Shown in pieces: positions 13,939 to 22,618 of a stretch of 64,000 nt of DNA (positions are counted from its first letter, which is position 1; the number at the start of each line of letters is the position of its first letter). The translations under genes and the position numbers were made by a program. The notes under the pieces were generated by a model. That model had not been told where the DNA came from. It did not search any database and saw only the letters and a program-made list of their open reading frames with translations. Source of the DNA: Afipia sp. (lineage in GTDB: Bacteria > Pseudomonadota > Alphaproteobacteria > Rhizobiales > Xanthobacteraceae); the NCBI GenBank assembly GCA_024508675.1, contig JANINQ010000001.1:435162-499161 (forward strand), written 5' to 3'.

Positions 13939-14937
13939 ATGAATCGGCGTGAGGTTCTGAAAGCAGCCACGATCCTGCCGCTGTCGCAAGTTGCACTGCA
14001 TGCTTTATCCGGCAGCGCTCATGCACAGGCGGCATGGCCGTCACGCAACATCACCATGATCGTACCGTTTCCGGCAGGCGGGCAGGCGGACCTCGCGGCG
14101 CGGCCGGTGGCTCTGGCGCTGGAGCGCATCCTCGGCAAGCCTGTCGTGGTTGATAACCGCGCGGGCGGTGGCGGCGGCTCCGTCGGCAATGCGGCGGCGG
14201 CCCGTGCCGAGCCCGATGGCTACACGATCCTGATGACCCTCTCTTCGCTCGCGGTTCTGCCGGAAGCGGATCGTCTGTTCGATCGCCCGGTGGCTTATGA
14301 AATGTCGCAGTTCGCGCCGGTGGCGCGCGTGCTCGCCGATCCGACCATACTGGCGGTACCGGCGTCTGCGCCATGGAAGACGGTGAAGGACTTTGTCGAG
14401 GATGCGAAAGCGCGGCCGGGCCAAATTCCCTACGGCTCATCCGGTCCTTACGGCACGCTGCATATTGCGATGGAAATGTTCGCGGCCAGCGCTGGGATCA
14501 AGCTGCTCCATGTGCCGTTTCGCGGTGCTGGGCCTGCATTGACAGGATTGCTCACCGGCACCGTGCAGGCGGTGGCGTCTGCGCCGGGTACGCTGCGTGC
14601 GCAGGTCGATGACGGCAAGATGCGCGTGCTGGCGGGTTGGGGCGCGAAGCGGGTGGCGAGCTTCCCGGATGTGCCAACATTTCAGGAACTCGGCTACAAG
14701 GATGTCGAGTTTTATATCTGGGCCGGACTGTTCGCGCAGGCAGCATTGCCCGCGCCGATCATGACCCGGCTGCGGGCCGCGGTGGGCGAGGCGGTGCGTG
14801 CGCCGGAAGTGGTGAAGACGTTCGAAACGGCGGGAAGTCCGGTCGCCTATATGGACGCGCCGGACTTTGCGAAGTTCGTCGAGGCGGACAGCGCGCGTCT
14901 GATCGCGGCGGTGAAGAAGATTGGAAAGGTGGAATAA
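13939..14937 (+). CDS. Bug/TctC tripartite tricarboxylate transporter substrate-binding protein
   Basis: Tat-like signal MNRREVLK, VPFPAGGQAD, NRAGGGG, HVPFRGAGPA. Confidence 0.93.
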   Translation: MNRREVLKAATILPLSQVALHALSGSAHAQAAWPSRNITMIVPFPAGGQADLAARPVALALERILGKPVVVDNRAGGGGGSVGNAAAARAEPDGYTILMTLSSLAVLPEADRLFDRPVAYEMSQFAPVARVLADPTILAVPASAPWKTVKDFVEDAKARPGQIPYGSSGPYGTLHIAMEMFAASAGIKLLHVPFRGAGPALTGLLTGTVQAVASAPGTLRAQVDDGKMRVLAGWGAKRVASFPDVPTFQELGYKDVEFYIWAGLFAQAALPAPIMTRLRAAVGEAVRAPEVVKTFETAGSPVAYMDAPDFAKFVEADSARLIAAVKKIGKVE

Positions 14938-15983: not shown

Positions 15984-17303
15984 TCAGGTATGGCCATGGC
16001 CGCGTTTGACCCGCCAGAGCATGATGGTCAGCGCGATCACCACGAACGGGATGGAGATGCCGGTCGCGACGGTTGGGCTGACCGGCAGATGATGCTCCAG
16101 GGATTCGAACACATAGTGCAGCAGGCTCGCGACATAATAGCTGATGGCTGCAACCGAGAGTCCTTCGACGGTCTGCTGCAGGCGAAGTTGCATTCGCGCG
16201 CGCTCGCTCATGGCCGCGAGCAGGTCGCGGTTCTGCTGTTCGATTTCGACATCGATGCGGGTGCGCAGCAGGTTTGCTGCGCGGGTCAGCTTTTTGTTGA
16301 GATCCTGCATGCGCGTGTTCAGCGTCTGGCAGGTGCGCATTGCTGGATTGAGCCGCCGCCCGAGGAATTCGGCCAGTGTCGGCCATCCGCCGAATGATTT
16401 TTCGCCGATCACGTCAAGGCGCTGGCGTACGATGTCGTCATAGGCTGCGCTCGCAGCAAAGCGATAGCCGGCGATCGCCGCTTCTGCCTCGACACGGGCG
16501 GCGAGCGAGGTGATTTCGTCGAGCAGCTCGCGGTTGATTTCAAGGCCGCCGCCGTCCCTGGTCATCGTTGTCATGATGTGGGTCAACCGGTCTTCGGCGT
16601 TGCGGATGATCGGTGTTGTCCGCTGTGCCAGCGGCAGACCGAGCAGCGCGAAGCAGCGATAGGTCTCGATTTCGAGTATCCGCAGCACGAGGCCGCCGGT
16701 TTCAACCGGCGTCAGCCCATGATTGTGAATCAGGAAGCGGACGAACCCGTCGCTATCGGCCTGAAAATCGGTGGCGACTGTGGCGTGATCCTTGAGGACC
16801 TGCGATGCTGCAAGCGATGCCGGATCGAACAATCGTGCAAGATCGGGCGCATCGCCGCTTTCCACGCGCAGGTCGATCGAAACCAGATGCGGTCCCGGCT
16901 GGCCGATCTCTTCCATGGCCGCGGCGATAGTATCCGGCACTGCTGGGCCACGCGTGGCGTCTGAACCTTCCAGCAGCCAGGTATAGGTCGTGAACTCGCT
17001 GTGTTGCTCCCAGCGCAGGATTGCACCCGGCAGCGCGATGCGCCGATGCTTCGCAGCCGTCGAGAGGGCAGTCAGATGATGGGCTTCACAATAGCGTGCG
17101 AGAGCGTCGGCGTTGGCGCTCATCTGTGCCGCGTCGGTGAGAAAGGCGAAACGGATCGCGCGGCAGGGCGAGGTGACGGCTTCGAACGGCCGCGCATGCA
17201 GCTCGCCGAGCACGACATTGCGCTCGGCATGCGGCGACAGCGCAAGTCCGCCCGGCTGCGGATTGATGCTGTCGGAGGTGTCATTCTCGCGGATGGTGGT
17301 CAT
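15984..17303 (-). CDS. DUF3422 family membrane-anchored protein
   Basis: ELHARPF, WEQHSEFTTY, LEIETYR..ALLGLP, RAANLLRTRID, QQTVEGLSVAAISYY. Confidence 0.9.
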   Translation of the reverse strand: MTTIRENDTSDSINPQPGGLALSPHAERNVVLGELHARPFEAVTSPCRAIRFAFLTDAAQMSANADALARYCEAHHLTALSTAAKHRRIALPGAILRWEQHSEFTTYTWLLEGSDATRGPAVPDTIAAAMEEIGQPGPHLVSIDLRVESGDAPDLARLFDPASLAASQVLKDHATVATDFQADSDGFVRFLIHNHGLTPVETGGLVLRILEIETYRCFALLGLPLAQRTTPIIRNAEDRLTHIMTTMTRDGGGLEINRELLDEITSLAARVEAEAAIAGYRFAASAAYDDIVRQRLDVIGEKSFGGWPTLAEFLGRRLNPAMRTCQTLNTRMQDLNKKLTRAANLLRTRIDVEIEQQNRDLLAAMSERARMQLRLQQTVEGLSVAAISYYVASLLHYVFESLEHHLPVSPTVATGISIPFVVIALTIMLWRVKRGHGHT

Positions 17304-17437
17304 CGCGCAAATCCCTTCCTGCCTGCCGCAATCATGCAGGGGAGGGACGCGCGTTTGCAACCGGACTTGTGAGAGGACGGAAACAAAAACGGCTGCCTGA
17401 TAGGCAGCCGAATTCCTGTTTCAGGTTGTCACGCGGC

Positions 17438-18208
17438 CTAGCCGTTGGCGGCGGTCTGGGTGCGGATGTCCTGCGCGGTCCGCTTCAGCGTCACCAGGAA
17501 CTTCGCTTTCGCCTCTTCCTCGGTGAGGGTGCCAGAGATGGTGTTGATGCTGACGGCCGCGACGACGTTACCGGCCTGATCGCGCACCGGCACGGCGATG
17601 CCGCAGATCGCGGGATCAAGTTCGCCGTCGATCCAGGCATAACCCTGCTGCTCGACCCGGGCGAGTTCTTCGGTGAGCTTGGCTGCGGTGGTCACCGTGC
17701 GCGGCGTGATCTGCTTGAAGTCGATATGGGAGATGATGTCCGCACGCCGGTCCGGCGGCAGGGCGGCGAGCAGCACGCGGCCGAGCGAGATCAGATGCGC
17801 GGGCAGGCGGCTGCCGATGCCGAGATTGGCGGAGAGAATGCGGCGCGCGGGCAGGCGCAGCGCGTAGACGATCTCTGTCTCATCGAGCACGGCAAGCGCG
17901 CAGGATTCGCCGATGTCGTTGCGCAGGTCTTCCAGCGCGCGCTGCGCGTAGCCCCAATAGGGAAGCGCGTTGAGATAGGACAGTCCAAGTCCGAGCGCGC
18001 GCGGGCGCAGGCTGAAATAGCGGCCATCGGCTTCGCAGTATTTCAGCGCCACCAGCGTCGCCAGCATGCGTCGCGCGGTTGCGCGCGTCAGGCCTGCAGC
18101 AACGGCAGCTTCCGACAGCGTGTGCCGCCCGGGCGGACGCCCCAGCGCTTCGACCACGGAAAATCCGCGGGCAATGGCACGGACGAAACTGTCGCTTTCC
18201 TTGGACAT
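17438..18208 (-). CDS. IclR family regulator (PcaR/PobR-like)
   Basis: MSKESDSFVRAIARGFSVVE, GLTRATARRML, LGIGSRLPAHLISLGRVLLA; only the last 256 aa of the 673-aa ORF are real. Confidence 0.92.
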   Translation of the reverse strand: MSKESDSFVRAIARGFSVVEALGRPPGRHTLSEAAVAAGLTRATARRMLATLVALKYCEADGRYFSLRPRALGLGLSYLNALPYWGYAQRALEDLRNDIGESCALAVLDETEIVYALRLPARRILSANLGIGSRLPAHLISLGRVLLAALPPDRRADIISHIDFKQITPRTVTTAAKLTEELARVEQQGYAWIDGELDPAICGIAVPVRDQAGNVVAAVSINTISGTLTEEEAKAKFLVTLKRTAQDIRTQTAANG

Positions 18209-18260
18209 CAAACTTCCTCTCATTTTCTCGCTTGTCAGATCCGAAAAGCCGGACCATAGT

Positions 18261-18295
18261 GTTCGTACAGTGATTATAAAGTTCGCCTGATGAAC
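18261..18295. promoter_or_regulatory. Putative tandem IclR operators
   Basis: GTTCG-TACAG-TGATT and GTTCG-CCTGA-TGAAC, 20 bp apart, resembling PcaR/PobR GTNCG-N5-CGNAC boxes. Confidence 0.5.
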
Positions 18296-18313
18296 AATAG
18301 ACGAGAGAACGCC

Positions 18314-18790
18314 ATGGCGCAAGCTCAAGCTTTCGAAACCGACTTCTGGAAAGACGCCAACCTTCGGAAGGTGTGGGACGACATCGTCCCCGGCGAACCG
18401 CGCAAGACGATGCCGTATCTTCTGACCAAGGAAGCTATCCAGCTCTATTGCCGCTCGGTCGGTGAGGACAATCCGCTCTACTTCGACGAGGCCTATGCCA
18501 AGACCACGCCTTACAAGGGCCTGATCGCGCCGCCCTCGATCCACATCCTGCTGATGTTCGCCTGCACGCCGACCGACGACTGGATGCGTTCGCCGGGCAC
18601 CGTGAACGCCGGTCAGTCGTGGAGCTACAACATTCCCGCGCGCCCCGGCGACACCATCACGCTGCAGGCCCGTGCGCTCGACAAGTTCATCAAGCGCGAG
18701 CGGTTGTTCGTTGTTCACGACAACGTCTTCTTCAATCAGCATGGTCAGGTGATCTGTTCCGGCCGCGGCCAGACCATCCGCCCGGCATAA
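18314..18790 (+). CDS. MaoC/FAS1-like hot-dog dehydratase subunit (HadA-like, likely non-catalytic)
   Basis: IQLYCRSVGEDNPLYFD, IAPPS, ARPGDTIT; Tyr where catalytic MaoC subunits have His. Confidence 0.82.
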   Translation: MAQAQAFETDFWKDANLRKVWDDIVPGEPRKTMPYLLTKEAIQLYCRSVGEDNPLYFDEAYAKTTPYKGLIAPPSIHILLMFACTPTDDWMRSPGTVNAGQSWSYNIPARPGDTITLQARALDKFIKRERLFVVHDNVFFNQHGQVICSGRGQTIRPA

Positions 18791-18811
18791 CGCAGACGAG
18801 GAGTGCAACAC

Positions 18812-19261
18812 ATGACCACGACATTCGACAGCCTCTCCGTCGGCGACACCATCGACGGCCCGAAGTTTGCAGTTTCGCGCGAGTCCATCCGCCTCTTCTG
18901 CGACGGCTCGCTCGACTACAATCCGCTGCACCTTGACGACAACTACATGAAGGGCAACTTCGGCAAGACCAACTTCGGCGGCATCATCATGCACGGCATG
19001 AACAACTTCGGGCTGATCACCCGGATGCTGACCGACTGGGCCTATCCCGCCGGCGCCATTCATCGCCGCCTCGAAACGCGCTGGGTCAAGCCGGTGAAGC
19101 CGGGCGACACCATCCAGCCGGAAGGCATCATCAAGGCCAAGCAGGTGACGCAGAATTCGCGCTGGGTTCTGATCGACGTGCTGGTGAAGAATCAGGCCGG
19201 GGAAAAGGTCGCCGTCGGCGAAGCGATGGTCGAATTCCCGCGCGCTGCATCGGCAGCCTGA
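18812..19261 (+). CDS. MaoC family dehydratase (HadB-like, catalytic)
   Basis: Hydratase-2 motif DYNPLH...IIMHGM, KPVKPGDT. Confidence 0.87.
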   Translation: MTTTFDSLSVGDTIDGPKFAVSRESIRLFCDGSLDYNPLHLDDNYMKGNFGKTNFGGIIMHGMNNFGLITRMLTDWAYPAGAIHRRLETRWVKPVKPGDTIQPEGIIKAKQVTQNSRWVLIDVLVKNQAGEKVAVGEAMVEFPRAASAA

Positions 19262-19268
19262 CGGCGAC

Positions 19269-20507
19269 ATGTCGGTCGCGATCATAGGCGCAGGAGTTGG
19301 TGGACTGACGGCGGCGTTGTCTTTGCACGCCGCCGGCCAGAGCGACATTCTCTTGCTGGAAGCGACACGGGAAATTCGCGACGTCGGCGTCGGCATCAAC
19401 CTGCCGCCGCACGCCGTGCGTGAGCTGACCGAACTCGGCCTTGGTGACGCGCTCGACAAGGTTGGCGTGCCGACAAAAGAGCTGTCCTATTACGATCCGA
19501 AGGGCCAGTTGATCTGGGCCGAACCGCGCGGTCTGGATGCCGGCTATAAGTGGCCGCAATATTCCATTCATCGCGGCACGCTGCAGCGGCTGCTGGTCGA
19601 TGCCGTGCGCGACCGCCTCGGCCCGTCAGCGATCCGGATCGCGCAGCGCGTGAACAATGTCGGCACCACCGACAACAAGGCCGTTATCGCGGCGACCGAT
19701 CTGACCGAAGATCGTGCGATATCTTATACCGCCGATGTTGCCATCTGCGCCGACGGCATCCGCTCGCCCTCGCGCGACAGTCTCTATGGCGCGGTCACGC
19801 CGCTCGCCTCGAATGGCTGGGTGATGTATCGCGGCGTCACGAAGTCCGGGCCGTTTCTCAGCGGCCGCTCGATGGTGATCATCGGCGATGAAACGCAGCG
19901 CGTCGTGGTTTATCCCATCGCGGATGGCGTCATCAATTGGCTGCTGGTCCGCCCGAAGGATACGGCGCGCGGTGAAACCGAACTCGGCAACTGGAATCTT
20001 CCGGTATCGACCAGCGTGATCGCGGAGTTCGTGAAGGATTACCGCTTCGACTGGCTTGATGTGCATGGTCTGGTGTCGGCGTCATCTGAGTCTTACGAAT
20101 ATCCGATGGCGGACATCGATCCGCTGCCGCGCTGGGTCTTCGGGCGCTGCGCGCTGCTCGGCGACGCCGCCCATGCCATGTATCCGTTCGGCTCCAACGG
20201 TGCGTCGCAGGCGATTATCGATGCCCGTGTGCTGGCTTATGAACTCGCTACCGCCGCGAATCCCGACGATGCGCTGCGCGGCTATGAGACACAGCGCCGT
20301 GAAACGGCAAGCGGCGTACAACTCGCCAACCGCCGTCAGGCCGGTGACGTGATGGCGCGTGTCAGCGCGCTGGCGCGCAGCGGCGCGCATGGCGATGCGA
20401 AAGCCGAGCTTCAGGATGTCGAGCGCCGCTACAAGCAGCTCGCGGGCTTCGATGTCGATGCCCTGAACACCCGAAAATCATGGAGCGTTTCCAGCGTTTC
20501 ACGATAG
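19269..20507 (+). CDS. Group A FAD-dependent monooxygenase, PhzS-like
   Basis: GAGVGGL, GVGINLPPHAV, IWAEPRG..AGY.WPQYSIHRG, ADGIRS, LLGDAAHAMYPFGSNGASQAI. Confidence 0.9.
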   Translation: MSVAIIGAGVGGLTAALSLHAAGQSDILLLEATREIRDVGVGINLPPHAVRELTELGLGDALDKVGVPTKELSYYDPKGQLIWAEPRGLDAGYKWPQYSIHRGTLQRLLVDAVRDRLGPSAIRIAQRVNNVGTTDNKAVIAATDLTEDRAISYTADVAICADGIRSPSRDSLYGAVTPLASNGWVMYRGVTKSGPFLSGRSMVIIGDETQRVVVYPIADGVINWLLVRPKDTARGETELGNWNLPVSTSVIAEFVKDYRFDWLDVHGLVSASSESYEYPMADIDPLPRWVFGRCALLGDAAHAMYPFGSNGASQAIIDARVLAYELATAANPDDALRGYETQRRETASGVQLANRRQAGDVMARVSALARSGAHGDAKAELQDVERRYKQLAGFDVDALNTRKSWSVSSVSR

Positions 20508-20555
20508 CGGACAGATCAAAAACCGGAAACAATCCGGAGCAAGAGGGAGACTTGA

Positions 20556-21539
20556 ATGCGCTGGTATTTGGATGTGATGCGGTCCGCGTTGATCGCAGCC
20601 GGATTGATTGCTGCAACATCGCAGATCGCGACCGCTCAGGATGCTTATCCGACCCGGCCGATCCGGTTGCTGGTCGGCTTCGCCGCAGGCGGGGCGACCG
20701 ATACGACATTCCGCAAGCTTGGCGAACTTGCCGCCAAGGATCTCGGTCAGCCGATCATTGTCGAAAACCGGCCGGGCGCAGGCGCAACATTGGCGCCGTC
20801 GACCATGGCGAAAACCGATGCGCCGGATGGTTACACCATCGCAGCGGCGACAGCGGGATTGCTGCGCTATCCCTACATGCAGAAGGTGGACTGGGACCCG
20901 ATCAAGGATTTCACTTGGATTACGGGCCTCGGCGGCTACACCTTCGTGCTGGCGGTGAATGCCGACTCGCCGCTCAAGACGGCCGCTGATTTCGTCGCCT
21001 ACGCCAAGAAGAATCCCGAGACCTTGACGGTCGCGACCGCGGGCGCGGGCACGACGATGCATCTGCTTGCGGAAGCACTCGCCGGAATGGCGGACGTGAA
21101 GATCACCCATGTCGGATACAAGGGCAGCAGCGAAGCTGTCACCGCGATCCTCGGCGGTCACACTATGGCGACGGTCGATGCCATCGGCACCATTCTGCCT
21201 TACGTTCAGTCCGGCAAGATGCGCGTGCTGCTCTCGTTCGATCCGCAGCCGGTGGCGTCGCTGCCCGGTGTGCCGACGGCGAAAAGCCTCGGCTATGATC
21301 TCGTCTATCCGGCGCCCTATGGTCTGGTCGGCCCGAAGGGCATGCCGCCCGCCGTGGTCGATCGGCTTTACAAGGCGTTCAAGGCAGCCGCCGACAGCGA
21401 CGAATACAAGAAACTGCTTGTGCAACTCGGCCAGACCGAGTGGCAGAAGCCGCCGGGCGAATATCAGAAGTGGGCGGGCGAGTTCTATGTGTCCGAACGC
21501 TCGCTGGTGGAGCGCGCAAAGCTGCTGCGTCAGCCGTAA
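20556..21539 (+). CDS. Bug/TctC substrate-binding protein
   Basis: YPTRPIRLLVGFAAGGATD, ENRPGAG, HVGYKGSSEA. Confidence 0.93.
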   Translation: MRWYLDVMRSALIAAGLIAATSQIATAQDAYPTRPIRLLVGFAAGGATDTTFRKLGELAAKDLGQPIIVENRPGAGATLAPSTMAKTDAPDGYTIAAATAGLLRYPYMQKVDWDPIKDFTWITGLGGYTFVLAVNADSPLKTAADFVAYAKKNPETLTVATAGAGTTMHLLAEALAGMADVKITHVGYKGSSEAVTAILGGHTMATVDAIGTILPYVQSGKMRVLLSFDPQPVASLPGVPTAKSLGYDLVYPAPYGLVGPKGMPPAVVDRLYKAFKAAADSDEYKKLLVQLGQTEWQKPPGEYQKWAGEFYVSERSLVERAKLLRQP

Positions 21540-21586
21540 GGCTGACGTGCAGATGACAGAAATTCTATCAACGTGAGTCCGAAACC

Positions 21587-22558
21587 ATGAAATCAGTTCT
21601 TGCCGCAGTCCTGTGCGTATTCATGCTTGGCGTCGCCGCTGGCGACGCCAGGGCCAACGACCAGTTTCCGCCGGGCAACATCAAGATCATCGTGCCGTTT
21701 CCGGCGGGCGGCACCACGGACATTCTGGCGCGGTTTGTCGCGCAGTATCTTGGCGACAAGCTCGGCGTCACGACCATCGTGGAAAACCGCGCCGGCGCAT
21801 CCGGTACGATCGGCTCCGAGATGGTGGCGAAGTCACCGAACGACGGCAGTGTGCTGCTGTTGACCGCGACCCACCACGTCATCAACCCGAGCCTTTATGC
21901 GAAGCTGCCTTACGATACGCAGAAGGATTTCTCGCCGGTGGCCGTGGTGGCGAGCGCGCCGAACGCGCTGGTCGTGAACAAGGATTTCCCGGCGAAGACG
22001 GTCGCGGACCTGATCGCGATGGCGAAGAAGGAGCCGGGCAAATATTCGTTCGGCTCGGCAGGGATCGGCGGAGCCAATCATCTCTCCGGCGAGCTGTTCA
22101 AGCAGATGGCGGGCGTCGACATCGTGCATGTGCCCTATAAGGGAGCGGCGCCTGCGATGAACGATCTGATCGGCGGGCATATTCCGATCATGTTCGACAC
22201 GTTGCCGACAGTGCTGCCTGCGGCCGCGGCCGGAAACATCCGCGTGCTGGCCGTCACCAGCAAGGAGCGCGCGGCGTCGCTGCCCAACGCTCCGACGCTC
22301 GATGAATCGGGCGTGAAGGGTTTTGAGGCGACTGCGTGGTTCGGTCTTTACATGCCGGCCGCGAACAACAACGTGGCCTACACCAAGCTGGTTGCTGCGA
22401 TGAAGGACATCCTCGCGGCGCCTGAGACGCGCGAAAAATTCGCCACGCAGGGCGTCGAGCCCGGCAAGCTGACGGGCGCGGAGTTCACCAAGTTTGTGGA
22501 CGCTGAAATCAGCAAATGGTCGGGTGTGGTGAAGACCGCGAAGGTCCCGCAGCAGTAA
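21587..22558 (+). CDS. Bug/TctC substrate-binding protein
   Basis: IIVPFPAGGTTD, ENRAGASG, HVPYKGAAPA. Confidence 0.94.
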   Translation: MKSVLAAVLCVFMLGVAAGDARANDQFPPGNIKIIVPFPAGGTTDILARFVAQYLGDKLGVTTIVENRAGASGTIGSEMVAKSPNDGSVLLLTATHHVINPSLYAKLPYDTQKDFSPVAVVASAPNALVVNKDFPAKTVADLIAMAKKEPGKYSFGSAGIGGANHLSGELFKQMAGVDIVHVPYKGAAPAMNDLIGGHIPIMFDTLPTVLPAAAAGNIRVLAVTSKERAASLPNAPTLDESGVKGFEATAWFGLYMPAANNNVAYTKLVAAMKDILAAPETREKFATQGVEPGKLTGAEFTKFVDAEISKWSGVVKTAKVPQQ

Positions 22559-22577: not shown

Positions 22578-22618
22578 AGAAAGCCCGCTTCGGGATTGTC
22601 CGAGGCGGGCTTTTTATT
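22578..22618. terminator. Terminator of the Bug operon
   Basis: AAAGCCCGCTTCGG...CCGAGGCGGGCTTTTT. Confidence 0.75.

Follow-up and report, generated by a model that had tools for sequence, protein, structure and literature searches.

A conserved IclR-linked operon joining a split MaoC-type hydratase, a PhzS-family monooxygenase, and two orphan TctC receptors in Afipia

The window analyzed here is a 64,000-nucleotide stretch of an Afipia sp. genome (GenBank assembly GCA_024508675.1, contig JANINQ010000001.1; C1:435162-499161 of a 4.44-Mb assembly in 22 contigs), and the locus of interest is a group of six genes lying between positions 17438 and 22616 of that window. Near-identical proteins under the names A. 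massiliensis, A. birgiae, and "Bradyrhizobium sp. G127" agree with the assignment to Afipia. A minus-strand gene for an IclR-family regulator of 256 amino acids (17438 to 18207) is divergent from five co-directional plus-strand genes. In order, these encode MaoA, a predicted noncatalytic hot-dog subunit of 158 amino acids (PF13452; 18314 to 18790); MaoB, a predicted catalytic MaoC/hydratase-2 subunit of 149 amino acids (PF01575; 18812 to 19261); a 412-amino-acid group A flavin monooxygenase assigned to PRK07538, the PhzS-type family (19269 to 20507); and Bug1 and Bug2, predicted periplasmic solute receptors of the TctC family, 327 and 323 amino acids (20556 to 21539 and 21587 to 22558). The spacers within the plus-strand run are 21, 7, 48, and 47 nucleotides, in that order. 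An intrinsic terminator 3' of Bug2 (AAAGCCCGCTTCGG...CCGAGGCGGGCTTTTT, plus strand, 22580 to 22616), consisting of a strong hairpin and a T-run, closes the operon. The IclR gene has its own minus-strand terminator, a 9-bp stem with a T-run behind it (17390 to 17410), which separates it from a downstream DUF3422 gene. This compact arrangement of five genes behind one regulator and one terminator had been described in an earlier note made from the sequence of the window, and all six genes lie as placed there, with minor corrections of start codons. The start calls for IclR, MaoA, and MaoB rest on conservation across loci. IclR starts after a GAGGAAG ribosome-binding site, in agreement with orthologs of 256 amino acids, the MaoB start follows from the 149-amino-acid length of its orthologs, and MaoA starts at the ATG at 18314 (MAQAQ...) and not at 18290, as judged from 19 loci. 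Among the window proteins and their family matches, no coenzyme A (CoA) ligase, transferase, or thiolase was found in or beside the cluster, as the earlier note had remarked. A literature search found no paper describing the cluster and no matching published pathway, and the proposal of an uncharacterized uptake and degradation operon under IclR control stands. On the evidence below, the operon is a real, conserved, and family-confined catabolic unit, as yet uncharacterized, and is most likely dependent on CoA.

The comparisons drew on 201 genomes of the window's own family, a phylum sample of 401 genomes for the distribution of MaoB, and phylum and order samples of 400 genomes each (800 in all) in which monooxygenase homologs were sought outside the family. 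MaoB homologs were counted as orthologs at 65% identity or more. Neighborhoods were compared over 28 loci of 20 kb each, onto which the window proteins and clusters of de novo open reading frames were mapped; reading frames in the fetched loci came from a simple caller based on GC content at third codon positions, and start codons there are approximate. A metagenome survey added 80 contigs that align with MaoB at 81% identity or more; the gene after MaoB could be scored in 70 of them and the gene before MaoA in 41.

The regulator contains both the HTH_IclR and the IclR_C domains. It had been called PcaR/PobR-like, and of that description the IclR family assignment and a relationship to the PcaR/PcaU/PobR subfamily appear sound, whereas subfamily membership does not hold, as the protein scores 252.1 bits against TIGR02431, under the model's cut-off of 284.75. 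The spacer between IclR and MaoA holds a putative promoter and operator region (plus strand, 18232 to 18295), with a promoter-like −35 element, TTGTCA (18232 to 18237), and −10 element, CATAGT (18255 to 18260). A half-site, TGTTCGTA (TGTTCG), lies at 18260 to 18267, and an inverted repeat, GTTCGCCTGATGAAC, lies at 18281 to 18295, with GTTCGC-N3-GCGAAC as the consensus among relatives. In an alignment of 19 loci from several genera, TTGTCA and GTTCGC never change, and the remaining spacer is variable. Because the repeat is placed between the −10 element and the ribosome-binding site, IclR would seem to act here as a repressor. The first ATG of the MaoA frame, at 18290, falls within this conserved repeat.

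The two small proteins that follow are both hot-dog proteins with different fates at the active site. MaoB scores 60.3 bits against PF01575 (cut-off, 27), and its motifs SLDYNPLH and IIMHGMNN are kept in 29 to 31 of 31 orthologs; in 14 diverse orthologs SLDYNPLH and MHG are invariant, so that the Asp, His, and HG signature of hydratase 2 is in place. MaoA scores 64.6 bits against PF13452 and 19.2 bits against PF01575. Its corresponding motif is VGEDNPLY, with the general form VGE(D/T/N/S)(N/H)P(L/I)Y, and the catalytic Asp and His are replaced by Glu and Tyr in every MaoA ortholog read. The earlier reading of a catalytic D-x4-H in one subunit (DYNPLH...HG) and a Tyr in its partner (EDNPLY), arranged like HadA and HadB as one catalytic and one structural protein, is thus borne out by the sequences. 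MaoA and MaoB adjoin at every locus that is readable at both ends, and with the catalytic dyad in MaoB alone, the adjacent gene pair has the layout of one catalytic and one noncatalytic hot-dog subunit; we infer that the two proteins form a heteromer.

Two groups of known enzymes are the natural points of comparison. MaoAB shares with the mycobacterial fatty acid synthase II (FAS-II) dehydratase HadAB and the cholesterol side-chain hydratase ChsH1-ChsH2 a pair of neighboring small hot-dog genes, of which only one encodes the Asp/His dyad. The profile matches are weak, with E values of about 1e-3 for ChsH1 and ChsH2 and with scores of 27.1 bits for the HadA model and 32.7 bits for the HadB model, far below the respective cut-offs of 180 and 203. 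The host here is moreover a proteobacterium, no FAS-II or steroid genes lie nearby, and the closest solved relative of both subunits is instead the homodimeric PhaJ1 (5cpg). Both subunits find their best structural and profile matches in PhaJ-type (R)-specific enoyl-CoA hydratases and in the MaoC domain of the enoyl-CoA hydratase/phosphate acetyltransferase model PRK08190. The nearest family paralogs are no more than 38% identical, and the open frames that contain them run to about 470 to 580 amino acids, similar in size to the 467-position PRK08190 model. MaoAB differs from these enzymes in being split into a catalytic and a degenerate subunit, in being under IclR control, and in its linkage to TctC receptors.

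The monooxygenase matches PF01494 and scores 470.6 bits against the NCBIfam model PRK07538 (NF005720; cut-off, 400), which places it within that family. Its closest solved and characterized relative is PhzS, the 5-methylphenazine-1-carboxylate 1-monooxygenase of Pseudomonas aeruginosa (PDB 2rgj and 3c96), with which it shares 45% identity over 362 residues (3c96; E = 2.6e-88) and aligned flavin adenine dinucleotide (FAD)-binding and active-site motifs. The motifs GVGIN, W.EPRG..AG..PQYSIHRG, and MYP.G.NGASQAI, which the earlier note had pointed out as shared with PhzS, are among those that align. To that extent the protein is PhzS-like, but orthology does not follow, since its identity to PhzS equals that to an unrelated paralog in the same genome (46%), and many paralogs in the family fall at 44 to 48%; we regard it as only a fellow PRK07538 member. 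Scores against equivalog models are all below their cut-offs, at 143 bits for HpxO (cut-off, 500), 129 for 3-hydroxybenzoate 6-hydroxylase (459), and 102 for salicylate hydroxylase (446). The 46% identical paralog (G000:C6:132251-133486; L063:9252-10517) is encoded between a CcrM-type DNA methylase gene and mutY; considered as a functional clue, it proved uninformative, its neighbors being ccrM, mutY, dciA, and a DsbA-like gene. PRK07538 homologs at an E value of 1e-60 or better occur in 113 of the 201 family genomes, with gene context read in the source genome only.

The relationship to PhzS, together with Joint Genome Institute annotations that label some homologs as 5-methylphenazine-1-carboxylate 1-monooxygenase, might be taken to mean that the operon degrades phenazine-1-carboxylate or a close analog, with the monooxygenase acting like PhzS. 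A phenazine-carboxylate-like substrate had been the earlier note's guess, and nothing we found supports it specifically. The identity to PhzS is no higher than that to the ccrM- and mutY-adjacent paralog, the gene context of hot-dog hydratase and TctC receptors is unlike phzM-phzS, and no phenazine genes lie near the cluster. No known phenazine route, to our knowledge, makes use of a hot-dog enoyl hydratase. A search with PF03284 (PhzA/B) gave no match in the source genome, a weak negative because it had no positive control, none of the control genomes having matched either. Other enzymes with PhzS among their closest characterized relatives use unrelated acids, as exemplified by Icm, the indole-3-carboxylate monooxygenase of Bosea sp. 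KVIA (PMC6692525). We hold the phenazine reading to be very unlikely.

Icm is itself instructive, as it is a 414-amino-acid group A flavin monooxygenase from a related alphaproteobacterium, with PhzS among its closest characterized relatives according to its authors, who proposed a decarboxylative hydroxylation of the N-heteroaromatic acid (PMC6692525). It resembles the window monooxygenase in its group and in its relationship to PhzS, and its example shows that the acids used by enzymes of this kind include various N-heteroaromatic ones. Compared by description, it is at best a distant relative, because no homolog above 48% identity was found outside the family in the 800 sampled genomes of the phylum and order samples, and no match there begins with the Icm N-terminus. 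The published 19-mer cloning primer was tried as a route to the Icm locus and gave 17 unrelated matches, none from Bosea and none encoding a monooxygenase homolog.

The last two genes encode receptors that score 230 and 251 bits against TctC (PF03401) and have signal-peptide-like N-termini. The genome encodes about 21 TctC paralogs and four TctA proteins. The TctA genes are all on contig C21, the window is on C1, and no TctA/TctB gene adjoins the receptors, which are therefore classed as orphan receptors of the "Bug" type. Bug2 is closest among solved structures to the terephthalate-binding receptor (E = 2e-71) and to AdpC, the adipate receptor of Rhodopseudomonas palustris (E = 2e-65). Transfer of a ligand from these or other solved Bug-family structures was considered and rejected, the similarity being at the level of the family only. 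In tphR-tphC type loci an IclR regulator faces the TctC receptor for terephthalate, and the window resembles them in having IclR divergent from an operon that contains a receptor of the tripartite tricarboxylate transporter (TTT) class; it differs in having no dioxygenase genes. A third TctC receptor gene lies at 13939 to 14937 of the window, 2.5 kb upstream, adjoining a haloacid-dehalogenase-like gene. Its position is kept in several genera at 82 to 96% identity, and its product is only 33 to 37% identical to Bug1 and Bug2.

MaoB orthologs, at 65 to 95% identity, occur in 30 of the 201 family genomes, representing about ten genera; genomes of other families in the phylum sample had none. A sharp gap separates them from paralogs, which reach 38% identity at most. 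Carriers include Afipia, Bradyrhizobium, Tardiphaga, Rhodopseudomonas (R. palustris BisB18 among them), and relatives of these genera, and the loci lie mostly in one syntenic slot running from YbaK to genes for a tetratricopeptide repeat (TPR) protein, an alpha/beta hydrolase, and pyruvate kinase. Gene content varies among the loci. The full form, in which a divergent IclR gene is followed by MaoA, MaoB, monooxygenase, Bug1, and Bug2, is found in Afipia and a few others. A short form with a divergent IclR gene and MaoA, MaoB, and Bug2 is found in Tardiphaga- and Rhodopseudomonas-type genomes and in other genera. A minimal form consisting of MaoA and MaoB, usually divergent from a PF04909 amidohydrolase gene, is typical of Bradyrhizobium-type genomes, and a further form has IclR and MaoAB with no Bug gene. 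One full-form cluster, in "Bradyrhizobium sp. SYSU BS000235" (G592), has a divergent gene other than IclR facing MaoA (L037:7834-9333), which encodes a 499-amino-acid FAD-linked oxidase with weak matches to the BagG/FevA2 oxygenases.

In a tree of concatenated MaoA and MaoB, the deepest branches have short or minimal forms and the full form is nested in the crown, where one or two gains suffice to explain it. The metagenome contigs show the same layering, the gene after MaoB being a monooxygenase in 10, Bug2 in 5, and neither in 55, and the gene before MaoA an amidohydrolase in 28 and IclR in 13. The monooxygenase and Bug1 always come and go as a pair. As the architectures, the tree, and the metagenome neighbor counts all differ by layer, the five-gene run reads as a composite of a hot-dog pair as the core, IclR and Bug2 as a layer of uptake and regulation (the older IclR-MaoAB-Bug2 unit), and the monooxygenase, an accessory gene, with Bug1 as a later add-on. 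A neighborhood survey had been proposed in the earlier note, and its expectation that the genes co-occur in other genomes is confirmed; that they form one ancestral unit is not.

The frequency of the pair on its own, as seen in 55 of the 70 soil contigs and, at a constant place in the chromosome, in Bradyrhizobium-type genomes, could also mean that MaoAB is a general (R)-specific enoyl-CoA hydratase of fatty acid or polyhydroxyalkanoate metabolism, which IclR, the Bug genes, and the monooxygenase adjoin by accident. PhaJ1 as the best solved match of both subunits would suit that role. The conserved putative operator, however, sits directly on the MaoA promoter, and IclR is present only where Bug genes follow MaoB: it was found in 11 of 11 metagenome loci with a Bug or monooxygenase gene and in 0 of 25 in which an amidohydrolase gene directly flanks MaoA. 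Moreover, IclR, a Bug gene, and a CoA-activating gene are present as early as the deepest branches of the MaoAB tree, and occurrence in 30 of 201 family genomes is too patchy for a housekeeping enzyme. We consider this reading improbable.

The layering bears equally on whether the operon serves one pathway or two. Under one alternative, two unrelated modules share a promoter with no metabolic link between them. The older module, IclR-MaoAB-Bug2, would serve an aliphatic and probably unsaturated dicarboxylate, and the later one, monooxygenase-Bug1, a different acid that is aromatic. The joint gain and loss of the monooxygenase and Bug1 within the crown of the MaoAB tree is as this would predict, as are the divergence of Bug1 from Bug2 (only 30 to 34% identity) and the resemblance of the CoA-transferases embedded in some of these operons, described below, to dicarboxylate transferases; pairs of a single enzyme gene and a Bug gene are common in Bug-rich genomes. 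Nevertheless, the monooxygenase lineage was never met away from MaoAB. When the monooxygenase was the starting point, all 11 independent retrievals of homologs at least 70% identical placed them beside MaoB, and the next-best homologs, in about 1,000 other genomes, are at most 48% identical. The full cluster occurs as one block in at least three different chromosomal contexts, and the gap between MaoB and the monooxygenase gene is just 7 nucleotides. Adjacency in every retrieval and in several contexts favors functional coupling over chance insertion, although it does not prove it, and we infer that the monooxygenase is functionally coupled to the hydratase. Two independent modules thus seem to us an unlikely arrangement, if one deserving serious consideration.

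The absence of an activating enzyme from the window looks different when related operons are examined. The deep-branching short operons L052 and L053 have a family III CoA-transferase gene directly after Bug2, and in L050 a gene for an adenosine monophosphate (AMP)-forming ligase separates MaoB from Bug2. Full-form clusters with a family III CoA-transferase as the seventh gene, after Bug2, were found in Bradyrhizobium sp. NAS80.1 (L060) and on a metagenome contig (L181), with 85% identity between the two transferases. A second Afipia genome (L043) has MaoAB within a LysR-controlled operon beside paa genes, which encodes an RraA-like aldolase, MaoA, MaoB, a CMD-family protein, a 3-hydroxyisobutyrate-dehydrogenase-like protein, a thiolase-like protein, an AMP-forming ligase, and an aldehyde dehydrogenase. 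Since the embedded activating enzymes are only 33 to 36% identical to one another, such genes were recruited independently, at least four times, in at least six loci. Independent recruitment is the pattern expected if MaoAB needs a thioester, and we take a CoA thioester as its probable substrate.

These operons argue against a thioester-independent hydratase, which would act on the free imported acid and need no CoA ligase, as the earlier note had thought possible. No CoA-activating gene lies in or beside this operon in the window or in other Afipia genomes, and the source genome encodes no ortholog of the linked activating enzymes anywhere; both facts are what such an enzyme would lead one to expect. 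But MaoB orthologs 66 to 82% identical to that of the window are encoded with a CoA-transferase (L052, L053, L060, and L181) or a ligase (L050 and L043), the Asp/His/Gly residues of hydratase 2 are kept in MaoB, and all of its detectable relatives are enzymes of CoA or acyl carrier protein (ACP) thioesters. We know of no characterized MaoC-fold hydratase that acts on free acids. The earlier note had itself named a constant association with a CoA ligase in other genomes as a finding that would undo its idea, and the orthologous operons provide that association in part; we regard thioester-independent hydration as very unlikely. The missing enzyme in Afipia is a local loss, because the same operon carries an activating enzyme in related bacteria. 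With no local or orthologous activating enzyme, activation in trans is assumed for Afipia; the source genome encodes about 12 family III CoA-transferases and about 20 AMP-forming ligases elsewhere.

The embedded transferases also give a weak hint of what the older module handles. They score best, if below cut-off, against models for succinate-glutarate and succinyl-CoA:mesaconate CoA-transferases (for L052 and L053, 501 bits against a cut-off of 750 and 338 bits against 700, respectively), and this resemblance to dicarboxylate CoA-transferases faintly suggests a dicarboxylate, possibly an unsaturated one. The itaconate and mesaconate routes proceed through a family III CoA-transferase, a MaoC-fold hydratase, and a lyase, and the L052 and L053 operons share the first two. 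However, a lyase gene is missing from all of these operons, their hydratase is a split pair and not a double hot-dog protein, the window has no transferase, and the L052 and L053 transferase scores lie under the cut-offs.

The reading that we favor, with a probability of about 0.6, is that of an IclR-repressed or IclR-modulated operon for the uptake and CoA-dependent breakdown of a carboxylic acid, a dicarboxylate or an aryl-carboxylate being plausible candidates. The two orphan TctC receptors would pass the substrate to one of the genome's four TctAB channels, whose genes lie outside this cluster, and the acid would be converted to its CoA thioester by an enzyme likewise encoded elsewhere in the genome. 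MaoA and MaoB would then act as a heteromeric (R)-specific enoyl-CoA hydratase on a 2-enoyl-CoA, with MaoB catalytic and MaoA structural or substrate binding. The PRK07538 monooxygenase would hydroxylate an aromatic or heteroaromatic acid, probably with decarboxylation, and that acid might either arise from a side-chain route or be imported as a second substrate, with Bug1 as its receptor.

Several observations weigh against this proposal. The best match in the source genome to any of the linked activating enzymes is only 34 to 42% identical and is no ortholog. The operon encodes no lyase, dehydrogenase, or ring-cleavage enzyme, and the encoded pathway is incomplete. MaoB departs from what we take to be the strict PROSITE-type motif of hydratase 2 in having Leu for the Gly that precedes the Asp, and it lacks the Ala or Ser that this motif, presumably, has five residues after the His. 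Finally, in the 55 soil contigs noted above the pair has neither regulator nor receptor beside it; a pair that mostly stands alone fits a general hydratase role and weakens the case for a single substrate.

A more specific version of the proposal, to which we would give little weight, is a family-restricted pathway in the six- or seven-gene form. Bug2 would import an aryl- or N-heteroaryl-enoic acid, such as indole-acrylate or a cinnamate-type acid, the hot-dog heteromer would take part in chain shortening at the level of the CoA thioester, and the resulting aryl-carboxylate, scavenged by Bug1 as well, would be removed by a new clade of decarboxylating hydroxylases like PhzS and Icm. The transferase would have been lost in Afipia and replaced in trans.

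The locus defines two uncharacterized enzyme clades that are confined to soil Nitrobacteraceae and abundant in soil metagenomes, a split MaoC hydratase and a PhzS-type monooxygenase found only beside it. Knowing their substrates would extend catabolism by a route for an acid of plant or microbial origin. None of this calls into question what is currently understood about hot-dog hydratases, flavin monooxygenases, and TTT transport. A more general lesson is that a CoA ligase "missing" from one genome does not amount to new chemistry when orthologous operons carry an activating enzyme.

Two neighbors of the locus deserve mention. The PF04909 (Amidohydro_2) gene (for example, L036:7675-8550, and also in L031 to L033, L095, and L180) is the commonest divergent neighbor of the hot-dog pair. 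Its product matches no NCBIfam model, has no ortholog in the source genome (best match, 33% identical), and has as its sole solved relative an uncharacterized Bordetella protein, BB4693. The DUF3422 gene of the window (15984 to 17360, minus strand, 458 amino acids) lies between YbaK and IclR. Of about 110 related loci, the only others that have it are two near-identical metagenome contigs (L100 and L101). It looks like a lineage-specific insertion, because other genomes have the PF04909 amidohydrolase gene or nothing at that position.

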